Source: Candidatus Brennerbacteria bacterium
GTDB lineage: Bacteria; Patescibacteriota; Minisyncoccia; UBA6257; JACPKE01
DNA length: 40,617 nucleotides
Assembly: GCA_016187205.1 (NCBI GenBank)
Contig: JACPKE010000023.1
Coordinates: 1-40,617, forward strand
Direction: 5' to 3'
This document shows, in pieces, positions 3,138 to 16,636 of this stretch (positions are counted from its first letter, which is position 1; every line of letters begins with the position of its first letter). Under the pieces are notes generated by a model. The model ran no database searches. It saw only the letters and a list, made by a program, of their open reading frames with translations, and was not told the origin of the DNA. The position numbers and the translations under genes are program-made.

Positions 3138-3410
3138 ATGCTATATGCTGGATATTATACAACATTAGACAGTTGTTGGATTAAAATCAGCTATGATTTA
3201 GAAATACTTAAAAGAGAATGGTGTTTTGGTATGGTAATATTTGAAGCGCCAGGGTTAACCTACGATGAATTACAAAAACGATTTCCAAACAATCCAGACC
3301 GCTATGATATTTTTAATTGGTTAAAAGAAAATTACCAAGAAATTCATAGAGATGGAGTGCCTGAAGATGGGGTGAATAATAAATTTGATGCTTTTATTAT
3401 TAATTCCTGA
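3138..3410 (+). CDS. hypothetical protein, 90 aa (start moved to Met45 of ORF 3006..3410)
   Basis: SD AAAAGGAGAGAA lies just upstream of the ATG at 3138, and the longer ORF would overlap tRNA-Ser. A terminator follows at 3483-3508. Confidence 0.55.
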   Translation: MLYAGYYTTLDSCWIKISYDLEILKREWCFGMVIFEAPGLTYDELQKRFPNNPDRYDIFNWLKENYQEIHRDGVPEDGVNNKFDAFIINS

Positions 3411-3482
3411 AATAGAGAATGATTGGATTTGTAGCAACGCTTATCTTAAGTTTTCTTAAACGTGGTACTTATCTAAACCACG

Positions 3483-3508
3483 AAAAGCCACTAAATAGGT
3501 GGCTTTTT
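3483..3508 (+). terminator. rho-independent terminator
   Basis: AAAAGCCAC / GTGGCTTTT stem followed by a T-run. Confidence 0.6.
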
Positions 3509-3555
3509 ATTTAAAATAAAAAGGGAGCTTCTATCAGAAGCTCCGAGATAACTAA

Positions 3556-3720
3556 CTAATGCCACAAAAAATAGCCAGATAACATACCAGTAAATAGTGC
3601 AGGCGCATCGTAAACCAAAAATCTCCACCCGGTAGGATCAATACCGGTATAATGCTTAACAATGGTATTTGTAATACCATAGATTAGAGCACAAACAAGC
3701 ATCAACCATAACTTTTTCAT
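3556..3720 (-). CDS. small hydrophobic protein, 54 aa (below ORF-track cutoff)
   Basis: Hand translation gives MKKLWLMLVCALIYGITNTIVKHYTGIDPTGWRFLVYDAPALFTGMLSGYFLWH. SD GGAGGAG lies 6 nt upstream and a hairpin GGAGCTTCT/AGAAGCTCC lies downstream. Confidence 0.5.
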   Translation of the reverse strand: MKKLWLMLVCALIYGITNTIVKHYTGIDPTGWRFLVYDAPALFTGMLSGYFLWH

Positions 3721-10204: not shown

Positions 10205-10519
10205 ATGAATATCAAAAGAAAATATCCACCGCAATCGCTACGGGGCATTTTATGGTCTGTTAAAACATCAAATTTAAATTTAGAAAAAGACAAAACATAT
10301 ATTATTCATCAAATATTAAGATACGGCAATCTTAAACAAATTTCTTGGCTCTTTAAAACTTACGGTAAAAATACCATTAGACGGGTTTTTTTGGAGCAAC
10401 CGCAAAAAATTTACAACTTGCCGAATTTTTATTTTATAAAAGATGTCGTTTTAAAAATAAAAAAAAGGACGTTGATTTCCAAATATGATTCAACCTCGCT
10501 TAGAAATATTAGGCCCTGA
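10205..10519 (+). CDS. small partner protein of AbiEii-type NTase (module 1), 104 aa
   Basis: Homologous by eye to ORF 16412..16636 (LW..N..(E/D)..K..YII....(Y/F)GN.K...W....Y....(I/L)R(R/K)V). Its 3' end overlaps the downstream NTase gene. Confidence 0.65.
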   Translation: MNIKRKYPPQSLRGILWSVKTSNLNLEKDKTYIIHQILRYGNLKQISWLFKTYGKNTIRRVFLEQPQKIYNLPNFYFIKDVVLKIKKRTLISKYDSTSLRNIRP

Positions 10520-11123
10520 AAGACTAAAAACTTTTTTAACACTAAAAGAATGGAAGCGGGAAGGCGTTTTGGGGGGCGGCACCGCTATCGCGCTGCAGCT
10601 TAAACATCGTTATTCTTATGATTTTGACATTTTTTTTAAAAAACCGATTGTTAAAAAATATTTTAATAAAGCCAAAACGATTTTTAACATTAAAAAGAAA
10701 TTAGTTGATACAATCGACCAACTTACTTTTTTAACAAAAGACGAAGTAAAAATAACTTTTTTATACTATAATTTTCTCCCGTTACATCCAAAAATTAAAA
10801 CAAATTCTTTGCCGCTTTTTAATTTAAAAGACTTAGCTTCCGATAAAGCGGCGACTATCGGCCGCCGCGGAATGTGGCGTGATTATTTTGACCTTTTTAT
10901 TTTATTAAAAAGCGGCGCAGTTAGTTTTGAAACCTTGTTGGGAGAAACCGCGAAAAGATTCGGCGTTGATTTTTCCGAAAAACTCTTTCTGGAACAACTT
11001 GTTTATTATGGCGATATTGCAAATTTTAATATTGATTTTATTTCCAAAGAATATAAACCGGACGAAATTCAAAGATTTTTTAAGAAAATCACGAGTAATT
11101 ATATAAAAAGTAAAATTTTTTAA
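10485..11123 (+). CDS. nucleotidyltransferase, AbiEii/AbiGii toxin family (module 1)
   Basis: GGGTAIALQLKHRYSYDFDIFF matches the GGTAL..R.S.DLDF NTase motif of DUF1814/AbiEii proteins. Confidence 0.75.
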   Translation: MIQPRLEILGPERLKTFLTLKEWKREGVLGGGTAIALQLKHRYSYDFDIFFKKPIVKKYFNKAKTIFNIKKKLVDTIDQLTFLTKDEVKITFLYYNFLPLHPKIKTNSLPLFNLKDLASDKAATIGRRGMWRDYFDLFILLKSGAVSFETLLGETAKRFGVDFSEKLFLEQLVYYGDIANFNIDFISKEYKPDEIQRFFKKITSNYIKSKIF

Positions 11124-11131
11124 AAAAAAAT

Positions 11132-11156
11132 AGGCGCATTGGATTCAATGCGCCTC
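11132..11156. terminator. bidirectional terminator between convergent genes
   Basis: AGGCGCATTG / CAATGCGCCT 10-bp stem with an A-run before it and T-rich sequence after. Confidence 0.6.
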
Positions 11157-11178
11157 TGTTGAGAAATCTTCCGCTTTT

Positions 11179-11727
11179 TTAAAGTATCTCATCAACTAAA
11201 CCAAGCCGCAGGGCTTCATCGGCAGCAAGATTTCTTTTCTCTTCGCATAGTCTGTTAACTTCTTCAATTTTCATCCCTGAACGTCCAGCTATTATACTCT
11301 CATAATCTTCCTGCGATTTTTGATTTTCCGCTATTCTTTTTTTTGACTCTTCTTCAAATTTTTTCCAATCCATTCCCAAAGTTATCTCAAAATTATGGAA
11401 AAACATTGTGCTATGACGCATCATTTTTCTTCTATGGCATGCCTGCAAAACAAGGATAGCCATAGAATTAGCTTCTTTAAAAACAGTGCCTGTTATCAAC
11501 GATTCTGAATACTTGATAATATCATATAAGTCAAACCCGGCCCCCACATTACCGCCTTTACTGTTGATATATAAAAATATTTCCTGGTTTGGATATTTGG
11601 CATTAAGCCATAAAACCATTTTAGCGATCTTGTCAGCTTGCTGGTCATCAATTCTGCCTTCTAAATAAATTTTTCGCTGTTCCAACAAAACCAACGAAAA
11701 GACTTTTTCTAAATCTTCATCAATCAT
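11179..11727 (-). CDS. ClpP-family protease homologue, orphan and divergent, 182 aa
   Basis: LYINSKGGNVGAG, ANSMA (Ser) and FFHNF (His) align with ClpP LYINSPGG / AASMG / MIHQP. No clpX or clpA is adjacent. Confidence 0.8.
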   Translation of the reverse strand: MIDEDLEKVFSLVLLEQRKIYLEGRIDDQQADKIAKMVLWLNAKYPNQEIFLYINSKGGNVGAGFDLYDIIKYSESLITGTVFKEANSMAILVLQACHRRKMMRHSTMFFHNFEITLGMDWKKFEEESKKRIAENQKSQEDYESIIAGRSGMKIEEVNRLCEEKRNLAADEALRLGLVDEIL

Positions 11728-11980
11728 TGATTCTTCCTCCTTCCATATGTTATTTTTAAATAAACTTAATAAACTAAGTTTTCTTTAACAGAGAATAGCA
11801 TTTTAAATGCTTTTCGTCAATCCCTCACCTTTCATCCCTCACTTTTGGAAAAAGTGAGGGATTCAAAGATTAAAATGAATAATCAAGCCATAAGCAGTGC
11901 GATATTCGTGCCGTAAAACGGCTAATCTTGGAAAGGTGAAGGATCAAGGTCGCTCATAAAATTTAATAAAATAGAAAAAT

Positions 11981-12241
11981 ATGTCTCAAGAAATACCAAA
12001 ACCATTAAATGAAGCGGAAATGGAAAAAAAGAAAATAGAAGAAGAGAAAAGAATTATCAAAGAAGCAGAAAATAGGGAAGGAATTAAAGATGAAGAAGAA
12101 GGAACAGAAAGCGAACTTAATAAAATTATAGAAGAAGAAAGAAAAGGAACTCAAAAAGAAATCACTGTAGACGAACGCACCGGCGAAATGCTAACACCGC
12201 AAGATATCAAAGAAAGAAGAGAAAAAGGATTTGAAAGATAA
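11981..12241 (+). CDS. Lys/Glu-rich hypothetical protein, 86 aa
   Basis: ORF with a highly charged, low-complexity sequence, followed by hairpins. Confidence 0.45.
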   Translation: MSQEIPKPLNEAEMEKKKIEEEKRIIKEAENREGIKDEEEGTESELNKIIEEERKGTQKEITVDERTGEMLTPQDIKERREKGFER

Positions 12242-12418
12242 ATAGTGAAGAGTCCCACCTTTACAGGCGGGACTTCTTATAATTCAAGCTTCGCTTGTCC
12301 AGCACTATGACGCGTCATAGTGCTGGACCTTGCTCTCACCCCCGCCATTACAGACGGGGAACTCCCACGAAGTTAGAAACCGTTTTTACAAATAATTTCT
12401 GAAAAAAAGGTTTCTTCA

Positions 12419-12446
12419 TTGATTTTTTAAGTAACTGATGTAAAAT
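12419..12446 (+). promoter_or_regulatory. sigma70-like promoter (TTGATT, 16-nt spacer, TAAAAT) placing the transcription start at or next to the ATG at 12454
   Basis: Hexamers read directly. Only 7 nt separate the -10 box from the ATG and there is no SD, so the mRNA would be leaderless or nearly so. Confidence 0.4.
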
Positions 12447-12453
12447 ATATTAT

Positions 12454-12681
12454 ATGAACACCACAACAACAAAATCATATGTTGCGTCAACACGCCAATA
12501 TGCTCTTACCGAAGCCCAAGAAGCAGTCATTAAATTAATTACTCTAAAACCATTACTTTCTTCACGAGATGAGGAAACGCTTTCGCTTTTAATCAATAAA
12601 GAACTTATGCAACGGCTCAAAAAAAGCCTAAAAGAAGCAGAAAAAGGGAAAGTAGAACCGCTTAAAAATATCCTTAAATAA
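12454..12681 (+). CDS. putative antitoxin of the adjacent RelE/ParE toxin, 75 aa
   Basis: Small acidic/helical ORF 5 nt upstream of a RelE/ParE-type gene. The assignment rests on position only. Confidence 0.55.
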   Translation: MNTTTTKSYVASTRQYALTEAQEAVIKLITLKPLLSSRDEETLSLLINKELMQRLKKSLKEAEKGKVEPLKNILK

Positions 12682-12686
12682 AAAAG

Positions 12687-12971
12687 ATGTATCGGCGCGT
12701 TATTACTCCTTCGGCAAAGCGCTCGCTTAAAAAACTGCCGTTCTCCGTCCGAAAAACTCTGGTTGATTCAACAAAAATACTTGAGTCCGATCCTTATGCC
12801 GGAGAAAAACTCTCGGGTTCTTTACGTTTTCTTTATTCGTTTCACTTTAAGGTTTCCAATATTCAATATCGGGTTGCGTACACAATAAATCAAAATGATA
12901 AGCTAATTATTATGCATTTCGCTCATACCCGCGAAAATTTCTACGAAAAACTTCATCATCTTTTTAAATAA
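12687..12971 (+). CDS. type II toxin, RelE/ParE family, 94 aa
   Basis: Size and motifs match: YRVAYTINQNDKLIIMHFAHTRENFY resembles the YR..Y.I......I.I..I.HR..Y core of RelE/ParE. Confidence 0.75.
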   Translation: MYRRVITPSAKRSLKKLPFSVRKTLVDSTKILESDPYAGEKLSGSLRFLYSFHFKVSNIQYRVAYTINQNDKLIIMHFAHTRENFYEKLHHLFK

Positions 12972-12984
12972 ACTCCGTCAAAAA

Positions 12985-13010
12985 TAAAAAGCTTGATAAA
13001 TCAAGCTTTT
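12985..13010. terminator. bidirectional rho-independent terminator
   Basis: AAAAAGCTTGAT AAA TCAAGCTTTTT. Confidence 0.7.
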
Positions 13011-13126
13011 TGGATCTCGCGGTCTCGCCGCTCTTTATATTCAACTTGCCATCAAGTTGAAATTTCCGAGCAATCCCCGCTCACGTCGGACCCTTCCGCC
13101 GACGTCTCCGCCCATGTACGGAGAAA

Positions 13127-13309
13127 TTATTTTACATGGCTATTATCAAGAACTGCCTCAATACTTACGCTAACATGATCATAACACCTTAAATGTGTAG
13201 TGAACCGTTCAAGCGCTTCAGCAAGATCAGATCCTTCATAATAAACATTCTGTCCAGGTTGGTATTCAGATCGTGGAAAAGTATGTATGACCAATGTTCT
13301 ATATATCAT
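13127..13309 (-). CDS. hypothetical mini-protein, 60 aa (start moved to the ATG after the SD)
   Basis: AAAGGAGGTG lies 6 nt upstream of the ATG. It is the last gene of the three-gene mini-protein operon. Confidence 0.55.
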   Translation of the reverse strand: MIYRTLVIHTFPRSEYQPGQNVYYEGSDLAEALERFTTHLRCYDHVSVSIEAVLDNSHVK

Positions 13310-13397
13310 TACATTCACCTCCTTTCATTCGGTTAAATGGCTCGACCGCGGTTAATAATCTGAATATTTCCTCGCCGTCGTCGCGAGAAAAAACTCT

Positions 13398-13571
13398 TCA
13401 CAGAACTGTTATCTTATGGCATTTCGGACAAGTTATCCTGATCCGCCCATCGAATAAACTGGGCTGATGTTTATCAGGATTAATCACGCCCTTCCATAAA
13501 GATTTGCAGTATGGGCAATTCGTTGGAATTAGAGCTAACCTTTTAATAACTTGTAGTTTTTGTTTTAACAT
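13398..13571 (-). CDS. zinc-ribbon mini-protein, 57 aa (below ORF-track cutoff)
   Basis: Hand translation gives MLKQKLQVIKRLALIPTNCPYCKSLWKGVINPDKHQPSLFDGRIRITCPKCHKITVL, with two CxxC pairs. The ATG directly abuts the TAA of the upstream ORF, and SD AAGGAGGG lies in the upstream ORF tail. Confidence 0.6.
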   Translation of the reverse strand: MLKQKLQVIKRLALIPTNCPYCKSLWKGVINPDKHQPSLFDGRIRITCPKCHKITVL

Positions 13572-13766
13572 TTATCCCTCCTTTCTTGAAAAAATGTCTA
13601 TATAATGTTCGCTATACTCTAAAACGCCATTTGTTCGCGAATGTAAATTACCATCGCAAACCTCGCAGGCGAACCATACCTTTTCACACTTATCACAAAT
13701 AAATTCTTCGGGTTCGCCAAATCCGCCAGATAAACGAAGCAATGCGCCGCCGCAATTACATTTCAT
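13572..13766 (-). CDS. Cys-rich zinc-ribbon mini-protein, 64 aa (ORF track gives 70 aa from 13784)
   Basis: MKCNCGG...CDKCEKVWFACEVCDG contains 7 Cys including CxC and two CxxC. SD AGGGAGAAAG favours the second Met. Confidence 0.6.
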   Translation of the reverse strand: MKCNCGGALLRLSGGFGEPEEFICDKCEKVWFACEVCDGNLHSRTNGVLEYSEHYIDIFSRKEG

Positions 13767-14271
13767 ATACTTTCTCCCTATCATTTAATTGTTTTTACAA
13801 AGAACTTTTAGGAAGCTAAATTTATTTAAAAATTCTCTCCCTTTCAGAAACTTTCAATTATTTGAAAATCTCTGAAAGAAAGGTGATTGATTTTTATCAC
13901 CTTAAAAATAAATGCAGCCAGTGAATCGCAAGATAAAAACTCTTATCTCAGACGCCGAGCATCACTGTATTGTTTTGGTTAAGACTAAGAAAGGTGAAGA
14001 GCGCCTTTCTTATAACAATTCTCCCAAAACTAGAGTCACCATTCATCACAAAATTGGAATAGAGCTCTCCTTATTCCAAAACTTGTGAGTGGCTCTGACA
14101 TGGCGTCGCTGCATTTTCTTATAAAAGAACTCGCGGGAAATTTTAGAAAACTTATTTCTAATTATTTCCCTTCCAAAGATCGCTTTATCTTTTTCTCAAG
14201 CGATCTTTGGAAGAGAGGCAAGCGATGTTTTGCTTGCCTGACTACATCTTTCACCTCCTTTTATTATTGCT

Positions 14272-14556
14272 TCATTTTTTTTCTTCAAAAATCCGACAAA
14301 ATTCTTCACCTGCCTTTATTAACTCTTCAACTTCTTCCTCCCTGGTATTACAACCCAAAGAGGGATTCCCTAGCTGATCATTAAGTTGAGAAAAAATCAC
14401 ATGAGTAATAGGAATAAAATCATATCGCCGATTTTCTATTATTATTCTGTTTTCTTTCTTCAGCTCTTTTAACTTAGTTAAAAGAGCTTTTGTAAAAGAT
14501 AAAGAAAATCCATTAACAACATCCTGTTTTAACACTAACTGTTGCTTTTGTTTCAT
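14272..14556 (-). CDS. hypothetical protein, 94 aa
   Basis: ORF with SD AAGGAGGG upstream and its own consensus promoter. I recognise no family. Confidence 0.55.
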   Translation of the reverse strand: MKQKQQLVLKQDVVNGFSLSFTKALLTKLKELKKENRIIIENRRYDFIPITHVIFSQLNDQLGNPSLGCNTREEEVEELIKAGEEFCRIFEEKK

Positions 14557-14599
14557 TTTATCCCTCCTTATATTATTAATAATTTAAGTTTCTGCTGTC

Positions 14600-14627
14600 A
14601 TTATACTCCTTTACAGAATTTTGTCAA
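14600..14627 (-). promoter_or_regulatory. consensus sigma70 promoter (TTGACA, 16-nt spacer, TATAAT) for ORF 14272..14556
   Basis: Both hexamers are perfect on the minus strand. Confidence 0.65.
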
Positions 14628-14741
14628 GGGGGTATAACATATTAAATCTAAAAAGCTGATTTTACCGCATTATATATAGATAAATTAGTATAATTTGAGT
14701 TGTTAATTTAAAATAACATAAAAAATGTTGATTTAAAAAAT

Positions 14742-14765
14742 GAGGGCTGTCAAATGACAGCCCTC
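14742..14765 (-). terminator. rho-independent terminator (minus strand), preceded by a second hairpin at 14775-14801
   Basis: GAGGGCTGTCA / TGACAGCCCTC 11-bp stem followed by ATTTTTT on the minus strand. Confidence 0.7.
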
Positions 14766-14798
14766 TTGGGGTTTCCCGAAAAAAATACTGCTTTTTTC

Positions 14799-14970
14799 GG
14801 GAAATTACACAATTATACTTTGCTTTCAATCAATTTCTAAAAATCACCACCCATTCATATTTCCTCCTTTCTTTTTATGCGTTTATGGGGAAATTATCAT
14901 ACTTCTTTCAATCAATTTTTTACAAATCACCACCCATTCATATTTCCTCCTTTCTTTTTATGCGTTTATG
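14799..14970 (-). repeat. tandem direct repeat, 2 units (89 and 83 nt) with an identical 45-nt core
   Basis: The core ATCACCACCCATTCATATTTCCTCCTTTCTTTTTATGCGTTTATG occurs at 14843-14887 and 14926-14970. Confidence 0.9.
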
Positions 14971-15104
14971 CAGATGACGCCACTTTTTGCCAGTAACCCA
15001 ACGATTCAGTATAAATATCGTTGGGCGCCGCTAAAGTGAATTACCATCCGCCCATCGCATCCTCCCTAAAAAGTTAATAAATTTTCAATCCCAAAACTTG
15101 TTAT

Positions 15105-15132
15105 ATTATAGCAATATATAAAAATAAGTCAA
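15105..15132 (-). promoter_or_regulatory. near-consensus sigma70 promoter (TTGACT, 16-nt spacer, TATAAT) driving the mini-ORF RNA
   Basis: Hexamers read on the minus strand, immediately after the TrmB-like stop codon. Confidence 0.6.
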
Positions 15133-15133
15133 G

Positions 15134-15745
15134 CTATTTTTCTTTCTTATATTTTTCTGCCGCTTCCCAGGCCAAATCAAATATTATGTTTGTCATCCTG
15201 GCAATACCTTCGTCTTCTATTAAAACTCCGGACGGTTCGTTTAAAAAAGAAACAAACCATACTTTATTGCCGTAAATACTCATATCTCCTTTAAATCCTA
15301 AAGCCACAAATCCTTTTATTTCCGAACATTCTGTTTTTAAAAAATCGTTCATCATTGTCCGCAACCCTTCTTTTCCTTGTAAAAATCTGACTTTTAATTT
15401 CGGCCCGGCTATTTTAAACAAACTTTCAAGTTCAGGCGTAATTTTTTTTAAAACTTCAGATTTTTCATCCAGGTCTTTTTCCAATTCCTTTTTTCGCGCA
15501 TTAAAAAACCTGACGATATTTACCGGATTTTCAGCCGCAAAAAATGTTTTTTTGCCTTTTTCCACGCTGCTTATCAAGCCATGCTTCATCAAAGACTCAA
15601 TTATAATATACACGGTTACCCGCTTTACTCCTGATTTTTCTGCCAACTGTTGAATCGTCGCTTCTCCCAAATCTAAAGCCGCTAAATAAACTTGAGATTC
15701 TTTTTCCGAAAATCCAATTTTTTCTAAATCTTGATGGTTAATCAT
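15134..15745 (-). CDS. TrmB-family winged-helix transcriptional regulator
   Basis: The N-terminal LEKIGFSEKESQVYLAALDLGEATIQQLAEKSGVKRVTVYIIIESLMKHGLI is typical of TrmB-type HTH. Confidence 0.75.
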   Translation of the reverse strand: MINHQDLEKIGFSEKESQVYLAALDLGEATIQQLAEKSGVKRVTVYIIIESLMKHGLISSVEKGKKTFFAAENPVNIVRFFNARKKELEKDLDEKSEVLKKITPELESLFKIAGPKLKVRFLQGKEGLRTMMNDFLKTECSEIKGFVALGFKGDMSIYGNKVWFVSFLNEPSGVLIEDEGIARMTNIIFDLAWEAAEKYKKEK

Positions 15746-15764
15746 AAAAAGTTAACAAAAAATT

Positions 15765-16463
15765 TTATTTAATTAGTTTTTTGGCAATCAAAGTTATTTC
15801 TTTCCTAAAAAAAGATTTAATCTTTTTCCAATCAGCGTCAAAATATATTTCCGGCTCCGGATCGCTTTCCGCGTCTTCAAAATACACCAAAGATTTTAAT
15901 ATATGGTGATAATTATGAGCTATTGCCGGATATTGCGCTTTGAGCCGTTTAATAATATTTTCCAGGGATTCAATATTATTCGCGCACCAATAAAGGTCAA
16001 AAAAATCCCTTTTCCGGCCGCGTTGAGAAATCGCTGTAATTTTCATTACGCCGATATCAATCGGGTTAAGCACGCGAATTGTTCCATAAATCGCCGGTTT
16101 TTGTTTAGGAATAAAAAACGGGTAAGCGATAAAACTGGCTTTGGCTCCGAAAAATTCGCCATAAATTGTATTTTTTCTGCTAAATGTCTCCTTCCAATTA
16201 GGATTATTAGAATAACGCTCCAACAGTTCTTTTGTATTAAAATTTTTAAGCTCGGTAAAAAAATCTAAATCAACCGACCGCCGATGCCCAACCCGCAAGG
16301 CTAAAGCAGTTCCACCGGCCAAATACCATTTTGATTTACCAAGCCATGTTTCAGAAGATAAAAAATCAAGCGCTTTTTTTGTTTTGCGCGGCAAGATATC
16401 ATAATGCCAGATTATTTTTTCGCCATTAATGTCCATAATGATTTTGTTTCCGGCCTTAAACAT
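15765..16463 (-). CDS. nucleotidyltransferase, AbiEii/AbiGii toxin family (module 2)
   Basis: WYLAGGTALALRVGHRRSVDLDFFT motif, plus the C-terminal KRDFFDLYW block typical of the family. Confidence 0.85.
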   Translation of the reverse strand: MFKAGNKIIMDINGEKIIWHYDILPRKTKKALDFLSSETWLGKSKWYLAGGTALALRVGHRRSVDLDFFTELKNFNTKELLERYSNNPNWKETFSRKNTIYGEFFGAKASFIAYPFFIPKQKPAIYGTIRVLNPIDIGVMKITAISQRGRKRDFFDLYWCANNIESLENIIKRLKAQYPAIAHNYHHILKSLVYFEDAESDPEPEIYFDADWKKIKSFFRKEITLIAKKLIK

Positions 16464-16636
16464 CTTGATTTAGAAATTACTTTCCTTAATAATCTATTGC
16501 TGTAAAAATTTAAAACCCAGCGCGCTTCTTTATCGTTACCGAAATCAGCCACCCGCTCAATGATATATTGAGCGTTTTTTTTAGGGTCTATTTTGTTTGG
16601 ATTTGTATCCCAAAATAACGCTTGTCTAAACTTCAT
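16412..16636 (-). CDS. small partner protein of AbiEii-type NTase (module 2), 74 aa
   Basis: Homologous to ORF 10205..10519 and overlaps the 5' end of the NTase ORF. Confidence 0.65.
   Translation of the reverse strand: MKFRQALFWDTNPNKIDPKKNAQYIIERVADFGNDKEARWVLNFYSNRLLRKVISKSRCLRPETKSLWTLMAKK

Follow-up and report, generated by a model that had tools for sequence, protein, structure and literature searches.

A lineage-restricted RNA with Gly-Trp mini-ORFs beside a TrmBL2-like regulator gene in a Patescibacteria accessory island

What could be the use of an RNA whose conserved reading frames are no longer than five codons? The question is raised by a small unit on the minus strand of contig JACPKE010000023.1 of Candidatus Brennerbacteria bacterium (assembly GCA_016187205.1), of which the whole stretch from position 1 to 40,617, referred to here as the window, was analysed. 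An earlier note on this DNA had described the unit as a stand-alone transcript with three open reading frames (ORFs) of four codons, each led by a Shine-Dalgarno (SD) sequence and each of the form Met-x-Gly-Trp-stop. Comparison with homologous loci makes it likely that the unit is a conserved RNA with mini-ORFs that are under selection as ORFs. We infer from this that the RNA is made to be translated, and it probably acts by engaging ribosomes. We would file it as a small RNA, conserved but lineage-restricted, and as a variant of the minigene and CreT types of RNA. By analogy with those two types, the function that we favour, at a probability of roughly 0.4, is that of a trap for ribosomes and tRNA-Trp.

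The comparison set consisted of the window, two diverged loci (L001 and L002) and a locus that is nearly identical to the window (L003). Between the window and L001/L002, the TrmB-like protein encoded directly upstream of the unit has 62-63% identity, and the alignable parts of the RNA have 70-78%. The unit measures ~360 nt in the window and ~240-250 nt in the relatives, and has the following parts in the window.

15132-15105, minus strand: promoter P1, with TTGACT as the -35 box (15132-15127), a 16-nt spacer with a TG, and TATAAT as the -10 box (15110-15105); 11 of the 12 consensus positions match
15066..15080, minus strand: A/U-rich leader block TTATTAAC-TTTTTAG, directly 5' of SD1; its columns are invariant in the three-locus alignment
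15066-15061, minus strand: SD1, GGGAGG, followed by the 5-nt spacer ATGCG and then by ORF1
15055-15041, minus strand: ORF1, ATG GGC GGA TGG TAA (MGGW, 15 nt), as read from the minus strand
15026-14996, minus strand: hairpin P1, with a 10-bp stem (GCCCAACGAT/ATCGTTGGGT) and an 11-nt loop, between ORF1 and the second SD; z = -4.0
14945..14959, minus strand: extended SD2 block, copy a, AAAAAGAAAGGAGGA, a 15-nt purine run with the SD sequence GGAGGA inside; invariant in the window, L001 and L002
14941-14927, minus strand: ORF2a, ATG AAT GGG TGG TGA (MNGW), with the counterparts MKGWI-TAA in L001 and MPGWV-TAG in L002
14862..14876, minus strand: extended SD2 block, copy b, the tandem duplicate of copy a
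14858-14844, minus strand: ORF2b, ATG AAT GGG TGG TGA (MNGW), the tandem duplicate of ORF2a
14789..14970, minus strand: tandem duplication of the SD2-ORF2 module, with a period of 83-89 nt
14804-14772, minus strand: hairpin A, 13-14 bp, A/U-rich with a CCCG/CGGG core, directly 5' of the terminator
14765-14735, minus strand: intrinsic terminator B, GAGGGCTGTCA/TGACAGCCCTC plus T-run (GC-rich stem 14765-14742, T-run 14740-14735)

The promoter, the three mini-ORFs and the two 3' hairpins, the second with its T-run, are thus all present where the earlier note had placed them, and the RNA would start near 15098. The hairpin between ORF1 and the repeats was likewise seen correctly, with a stem that is computed as 10 bp instead of 9 bp.

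The same design is found in L001 and L002. A consensus promoter abuts the stop codon of the TrmB-like gene, and is followed by the leader block TTATTAAC(C)TTTT, by ORF1 (GGAGGA, 5 nt, ATG GGT GGA TGG TAA) and a 10-bp hairpin, and then by the invariant AAAAAGAAAGGAGGA, the second mini-ORF, a hairpin and a terminator. The hexamers of promoter P1 are kept in both loci (12/12 in L001), with diverged spacer sequence between them. The most conserved blocks of the unit in the three-locus alignment are SD1 with ORF1 and the 15-nt SD2 block. ORF1 reads MGGW-TAA at all three loci, with a single synonymous change (GGC/GGT) at codon 2; its distance from the SD to the AUG is always 5 nt, the sequence of that spacer varies (ATGCG, ACGCA, ATGTC), and the sequence past the TAA is fully diverged. 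The second mini-ORF is more variable:

Window: ATG AAT GGG TGG TGA, MNGW, SD2-AUG spacer of 4 nt
L001: ATG AAA GGT TGG ATC TAA, MKGWI, SD2-AUG spacer of 7 nt
L002: ATG CCT GGG TGG GTC TAG, MPGWV, SD2-AUG spacer of 5 nt

Across the loci codon 2 of ORF2 is free (AAT/AAA/CCT), the Gly codon changes at the wobble position only (GGG/GGT), and UGG does not vary; each of the three stop codons occurs. Wobble-only Gly changes, a free second codon, indels in the spacer and three different stops together argue for a constraint on translation and not on an RNA motif. Apart from AUG, no sense codon but UGG is the same in all mini-ORFs of the three loci. The Met-x-Gly-Trp pattern is therefore kept at the codon level in L001 and L002, beyond a mere DNA repeat, the conservation of which alone the earlier note had named among the findings that would refute it; the stop codon directly after Trp, on the other hand, is not a strict part of it, as MKGWI and MPGWV demonstrate. 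A longer ORF is not conserved in any frame across the loci, and none of more than 5 codons is kept: the reading frame of a 46-aa gene called in L001 is broken in L002 and in the window. If translated, these frames of 4-5 codons would count among the shortest for which purifying selection has been shown, and their place would be a dedicated RNA instead of a leader.

Counts in the window itself point in the same direction. There are seven GGAGG-led ORFs of at most 5 codons, against 1.5 on average and at most 5 in shuffled sequences, so that a chance origin is unlikely, and all seven sit in one island on the same strand as the unit. The module AAAGGAGGA-AAT-ATG AAT GGG TGG TGA is found in two identical copies, its 27-mer occurring exactly twice where none is expected in shuffles. 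Two more GGAGG-led ATG-stop elements are present in the same island and on the same strand, at 14258 and 13322 (minus strand), the former of which is not kept in L001/L002. Each repeat copy also contains an overlapping ORF in the +1 frame, 8 nt from the SD (ATG GGT GGT GAT TTG/TTT stop, MGGDL/MGGDF, at 14923-14937 and 14840-14854, minus strand); since these ORFs are missing from L001/L002 they are probably incidental.

How could such an RNA act? In the favoured reading, as a trap, ribosomes would be loaded very efficiently at the strong SDs and carried to the UGG at codon +4, where they would terminate or drop off, and the strong SD would then lead to re-initiation on the same RNA. The RNA would in this way be a brake that ties up the ribosomes and the tRNA-Trp of the cell, with an output that would be set transcriptionally, most plausibly by the product of the adjacent upstream gene, the TrmBL2-like regulator. 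When NGG codons (UGG, GGG, AGG, CGG) occupy positions +2 to +5 in E. coli, peptidyl-tRNA drops off and pth(Ts) cells are inhibited (PMC2490762; PMC12204400), and ORF2 of the window contains GGG-UGG, both of which are drop-off-prone NGG codons. Both a strong SD and a UAA stop make minigenes more toxic, and a strong SD permits re-initiation without release of the ribosome (PMC8708949). The lambda bar minigenes and the synthetic toxic minigenes consist of 2-5 codons behind an SD, and in them re-initiation and the drop-off of peptidyl-tRNA are promoted by a strong SD and by a UAA stop (PMC2490762, PMC8708949, PMC12204400); the unit likewise combines GGAGG SDs, AUG starts and 4-5 codons with, for ORF1, a UAA stop at all loci. 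Those minigenes are of phage or artificial origin and were studied in E. coli pth mutants, whereas the present unit is a conserved chromosomal RNA gene of the Candidate Phyla Radiation (CPR), with structured domains and a linked regulator.

The likeness to CreT is in the overall architecture. Both the CreT RNAs that sequester Arg- or Ile-tRNA in Haloarcula and Halobacterium and the 'proline-codon' CreT of Pseudomonas aeruginosa are strongly promoted small RNAs with an SD, a very short ORF and a stable hairpin downstream, and the CreT toxins require the SD, the mini-ORF and that hairpin (PMC8501985). In the unit, hairpin P1 begins 11-15 nt past the stop codon of ORF1 at all three loci. The P. 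aeruginosa CreT has a mini-ORF of 15 nt, the length of ORF1, with a requirement for Pro-Pro at the amino-acid level; in both cases the constraint is on codons or residues and not on a protein (bioRxiv 10.64898/2026.06.02.729485). The setting of addiction or defence is also shared, and we count the two AbiEii modules and the ParE gene of the island as supporting context. Unlike CreTA, the unit has no cas genes and no creA (a degenerate repeat) beside it, its neighbours being DUF6922, AbiEii, TrmB-like, small orphan and ParE genes; the one CRISPR-like signal is a sub-threshold Rfam match (18 bits against a cut-off of 39). It further differs in having a protein regulator (TrmBL2-like) as neighbour, in carrying two ORFs per RNA, and in its codons, GGN-GGA-UGG or x-GGN-UGG, where the CreT RNAs have consecutive rare Arg or Ile codons or Pro-Pro. 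Trp is the rarest amino acid of the genome (0.84% of codons). The sequence AGAAAGGAGG is fully complementary to a 16S 3' tail of the Bacillus type, from which the host 16S may differ.

Ribosomes are believed to be very few in CPR cells. An RNA made for loading and retaining them could therefore be a global growth switch in such cells and, if the trap reading is true, the CreT/minigene principle would be extended to a new phylum, to the residue pair Gly-Trp and to a protein regulator in place of a CRISPR-guided one.

Several points weigh against a trap. UGG, at 8.4 per 1000, is not among the 15 rarest codons, and ORF2 of L001 and L002 has an extra codon past Trp. The comparison comprises three diverged loci only, of which L001 and L002 lie rather near one another, and the NGG rule derives from E. 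coli. The duplicated second module and the presence of the locus in several groundwater samples fit poorly with strong toxicity. Finally, the putative repressor has a 56-aa deletion in the copy of the window, and four of the five distant TrmB loci are without such a unit.

That regulator gene is the conserved partner of the RNA that the earlier note had overlooked:

15134..15745, minus strand: TrmBL2-like winged-helix regulator gene (Pfam TrmB), directly upstream of the unit, with synteny in L001, L002 and L003

On the basis of this synteny the gene is a conserved neighbour and a likely partner of the RNA unit. A full-length homologue (P0002) matches the archaeal TrmBL2 (PDB 5BOX) over its whole length with E = 3.7e-7. 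Relative to P0002 and L003, the regulator of the window (203 aa) is missing 168 nt (56 aa, in frame) near 15297/15298. The only run contig that covers the deletion site (from run X2) has the full-length form, which indicates that the deletion is a strain variant or an assembly artefact. An origin of the unit as a remnant of the 3' end of the TrmB gene was considered and rejected, as the 56 aa are lost from the interior of the protein, whose C-terminus and stop codon are kept. Taking regulator and RNA together, one could imagine an undescribed two-part module in which a TrmBL2-like repressor would keep the RNA silent and in which, upon derepression, the Gly-Trp mini-ORFs would capture the few ribosomes and the tRNA-Trp and bring the CPR cell to stasis, as a protein-repressed analogue of CreTA for addiction, abortive infection or dormancy; the mini-ORFs would then rank with the shortest genes under selection. 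This more specific proposal is doubtful as it stands.

Among the alternatives to a trap, the first is that the unit senses Trp-tRNA or the translation status of the cell: a ribosome pausing at UGG when charged tRNA-Trp is scarce would alter the fold or the stability of the RNA, and the signal would be passed in trans to the regulator or to the cassette downstream. The invariance of UGG in every mini-ORF at all three loci agrees with a sensor. So does the predicted pairing of ORF1 codons 2-4 with a downstream segment in all three homologues (P ~0.7), by which a ribosome on these codons would remodel the 5' domain. A sensor would, moreover, be useful to cells that are short of amino-acid synthesis, and Patescibacteria are generally without it. 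The structures of the RNA are well maintained. The inferred 364-nt transcript folds better than shuffled sequences (z = -3.9). Hairpin P1 has 10 bp in all three homologues (-14.6, -17.1 and -19.9 kcal/mol), its stem CCCAACGAU/AUCGUUGGG in the window being a paired insertion apart from the CCCACGA/UCGUGGG of L001/L002; at the position of hairpin A those loci have a hairpin of other sequence (CUA/UAG versus CCCG/CGGG), and terminator B is kept in them with a compensatory swap of C-G to G-C. Compensatory or paired changes have thus preserved hairpin P1, hairpin A and terminator B despite drift of the sequence, which we count in favour of the main reading.

Against a sensor, no alternative structure involves the terminator: its stem forms with a probability of 0.997-1.000 in the three homologues, with a ribosome footprint on any of the mini-ORFs or with none, and its formation is therefore independent of the ribosome and leaves no attenuator logic. 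The effect of a footprint on ORF1 on the accessibility of SD2 is inconsistent across the homologues, and a single Trp codon is weak compared with the tandem codons of classical leaders. We consider a sensor unlikely on balance. The classical Trp devices resemble the unit in having a short Trp-containing ORF followed by hairpins and a terminator. Unlike trpL, the unit has a single Trp codon, no antiterminator alternative and no conserved regulated operon downstream, and a ribosome-mediated attenuator of the trpL type was rejected both for the constant terminator probability and because the downstream gene is not conserved. A peptide of this length falls far short of what tunnel sensing of the TnaC type requires, and its Trp codon does not in all cases come last; the codon past Trp in MKGWI and MPGWV weakens the case for TnaC-like stalling at the stop codon, a possibility raised in the earlier note.

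A second alternative takes the peptides themselves to be the product. The tetrapeptide fMet-Gly-Gly-Trp and the variants fMet-x-Gly-Trp(-x) would be ligands within the cell, most plausibly of the TrmBL2-like regulator, or substrates of an enzyme. In line with this, Gly-Trp is kept by means of three Gly codons (GGA, GGG, GGT) that are read by different tRNAs, and the regulator has a C-terminal domain of ~180 aa without assigned function. Yet the synthesis of four-residue peptides is inefficient and their degradation rapid, the neighbourhood of the unit has no conserved gene for modification or export, and residue 2 of ORF2 as well as its extra C-terminal residue vary freely. For a co-variation of peptide and regulator, three loci are too few. 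Peptide products appear a less probable explanation than a sensor; if either of the two were correct, the unit would still represent a new RNA family linked to TrmBL2-like regulators.

Less probable again is an untranslated regulatory or sponge RNA, in which GGAGG and GGAUGG would bind a protein or the 30S subunit (as a CsrB-like RNA or an anti-SD decoy), with the AUGs and the stops being incidental. The invariant purine block of 15 nt exceeds the needs of an SD, and the fold of the RNA as a whole is better than that of shuffles (z = -3.9 as above). In addition, a helix between the leader block and the A-rich half of the first SD2 block is predicted in all three homologues, with 5.6-7.0 pairs expected in the ensemble. 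In these models the leader:SD2 pairing may be the reason for the invariance of both blocks, and it could account for them at the RNA level; both sides of the helix being invariant, it carries no covariation signal. Translational coupling of ORF2 to ORF1 through the same helix was rejected, as the predictions disagree between the homologues. Against a sponge, indels in the spacer have left the AUG and the frame intact, with an in-frame stop within 1-2 codons; three different stop codons occur, substitutions are seen at wobble or free codon positions, and the RNA has no match in Rfam.

That the unit is just the 3' untranslated region of the AbiEii-TrmB operon or the 5' leader of the next cassette, with mini-ORFs that stabilise the mRNA, through ribosomes shielding it from RNases, or couple translation, is very improbable: minigenes that protect mRNAs or tune their neighbours are known (e.g. 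axe-txe mg2 and the LEE4 leader; PMC8708949) and no terminator separates the TrmB stop from the unit, but the unit has its own conserved near-consensus promoter and a strong constitutive terminator before the next gene, and that gene is unrelated between the loci and has a promoter of its own. The gap between the stop codon of the TrmB-like gene and the -35 box of promoter P1 is 1 nt. Since it holds no terminator, the unit is also the 3' end of the transcript of that operon; the stand-alone character claimed before is borne out by the conserved promoter and terminator, and strict independence is not. At the other end the claim that the unit is not a simple leader is upheld by the terminator (P > 0.99) and by the following promoter:

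14627-14600, minus strand: promoter P2, TTGACA-16-TATAAT, with 12 of 12 consensus matches; it drives the next cassette and lies outside the RNA
14557-14660, minus strand: conserved P2 region, corresponding to L001 5280-5375 and L002 2292-2385

Promoter P2 (TTGACAAAATT..GTAAAGGAGTATAAT) and the first ~25 nt of the 5' untranslated region are ~89% invariant across the three loci, and the gene behind it is unrelated between them, encoding 94 aa in the window and 70 aa in L001/L002; the search with the 94-aa protein gave no homologues. With an unrelated next gene, a conserved P2 of its own and a constitutive terminator in between, the unit is not the leader of that gene. P2 resembles a conserved slot for expression whose cargo can be exchanged, and its conserved spacer suggests a putative operator.

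Other candidate classes were rejected. The earlier suggestion of a type I toxin-antitoxin-like RNA finds neither a hydrophobic peptide nor an antisense partner in the unit: there is no conserved ORF of more than 5 codons, and the long stop-free antisense frames have no start codons and shift in frame between the loci, which also disposes of an antisense ORF as such. For a type III system (ToxI-like) the repeat is restricted to the lineage of the window and there is no ToxN/AbiQ-like gene among the neighbours. An alternative genetic code in which ORF2 would be read through its TGA was dismissed as well, as TGA ends 5 of the 26 long ORFs, and the long ORFs under table 11 cover 69% of the window.

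The tandem duplication, which the earlier note had included in its description of the unit, is found in the lineage of the window only, L001 and L002 having a single second ORF. It is thus a recent lineage-specific amplification outside the conserved design. The copies are spaced by 83 nt, with 54 nt at 96% identity and an identical core of 47 nt (14841-14887) where 45 nt had been reported. The duplication itself is real and not an assembly artefact, since the junction between the repeats is spanned by short contigs in the runs X1, X2 and X5, from two studies.

How widespread is the unit? The TrmB-like protein has three close homologues only, among 5.8 billion protein clusters, and among all retrieved loci, with L021 and L022 as closest HtrA relatives included, BLAST detected the unit in L001-L003 only. 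The search for SD mini-ORF patterns that the earlier note had recommended did not yield further credible members among the GTDB representative genomes, the JGI metagenomes and the viral contigs. The two-ORF pattern had 4 matches in the GTDB representatives, all of them unrelated, being tandem repeats from genomes that have long open frames and a GC content of 64-73%. In the Acidobacteriota, L008 (3846-3975) and L010 (908-1031) contain ~100-nt tandem repeats with GGAGGCCGAGATGATTGGATGGAGATC, which match the pattern solely through being repeats. The ORF1 pattern had 9 matches in the JGI metagenome contigs (5 contigs of one 75%-GC lineage, three isolated ones and L018), none of which is a credible relative; the AT-rich L018 is without a second ORF. 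The contigs of the ~75%-GC lineage (L012, L013, L014, L019 and L020) keep GGAGG-N5-ATG GGC GGA TGG TAA ~80 nt upstream of a GTG-start gene, and their MGGW motif may be an unrelated upstream ORF or a coincidence. In the viral contigs both patterns had 0 matches. As to its standing as an RNA family, the unit lies outside any known Rfam family at the gathering threshold, at which the window, L001, L002, L004, L006 and L021 had no family match; at E <= 10 the window and the related loci gave tRNAs and noise only, the best sub-threshold match (E = 0.05) being implausible. No description of such an RNA was found in the accessible literature.

The linkage of the unit to TrmB holds for three of the three close loci and one of the five distant ones: an analogous unit is present at L006, and none at L004, L007, L024 and L026. 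The L006 unit (3275-3713, minus strand) is convergent to the TrmB homologue (43% identity) and has the promoter TTGACA-17-TATCAT. It is composed of SD-ATG GGA GAC TAA (MGD), GC-rich hairpins, SD-ATG GAG GAT TAA (MED) and a shared bidirectional terminator. The design is that of the unit of the window, but without Trp.

The window has 39% GC and the standard code, and its HtrA homologues place it near Jorgensenbacteria-like lineages (Patescibacteria), the host being an ultra-small bacterium from groundwater. The island in which the unit lies contains two DUF6922/AbiEii modules, a ParE-like toxin gene, genes for zinc-ribbon mini-proteins, the TrmB-family gene and small orphan genes. The gene order DUF6922, AbiEii, TrmB-like gene and RNA unit is common to the contigs of the homologues as far as these reach; L001 additionally has nifS and htrA upstream, and the contig of L003 ends within the unit, the gene at its upstream side being without a family call. 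At L023 (4977-9045, 67% HtrA identity) clpB directly follows htrA, which represents the empty site and identifies the ~6.4-kb island of the window (about 10205-16636) as an insertion. The two closest HtrA relatives other than the genome of L001 (L021 and L022) are without the unit. In L021 (90% HtrA identity) the island has other content, namely DUF6922-AbiEii and a 1187-aa ORF.

Finally, a GC-rich and hairpin-rich element, ..AGCCATGTAAAATA..CATGGCGGAGACG..GTGAGCGGGGATT.., and the hairpin GGCAAGCAAAACATCGCTTGCC recur in the window, L001 and L002, where they stand behind different small genes:

Window 13011-13140 and 14216-14245, minus strand; L001 5575-5848; L002 2590-2870: GC/hairpin-rich elements, without Rfam match

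From their recurrence at such positions, these elements look like conserved cassette-end RNA elements.

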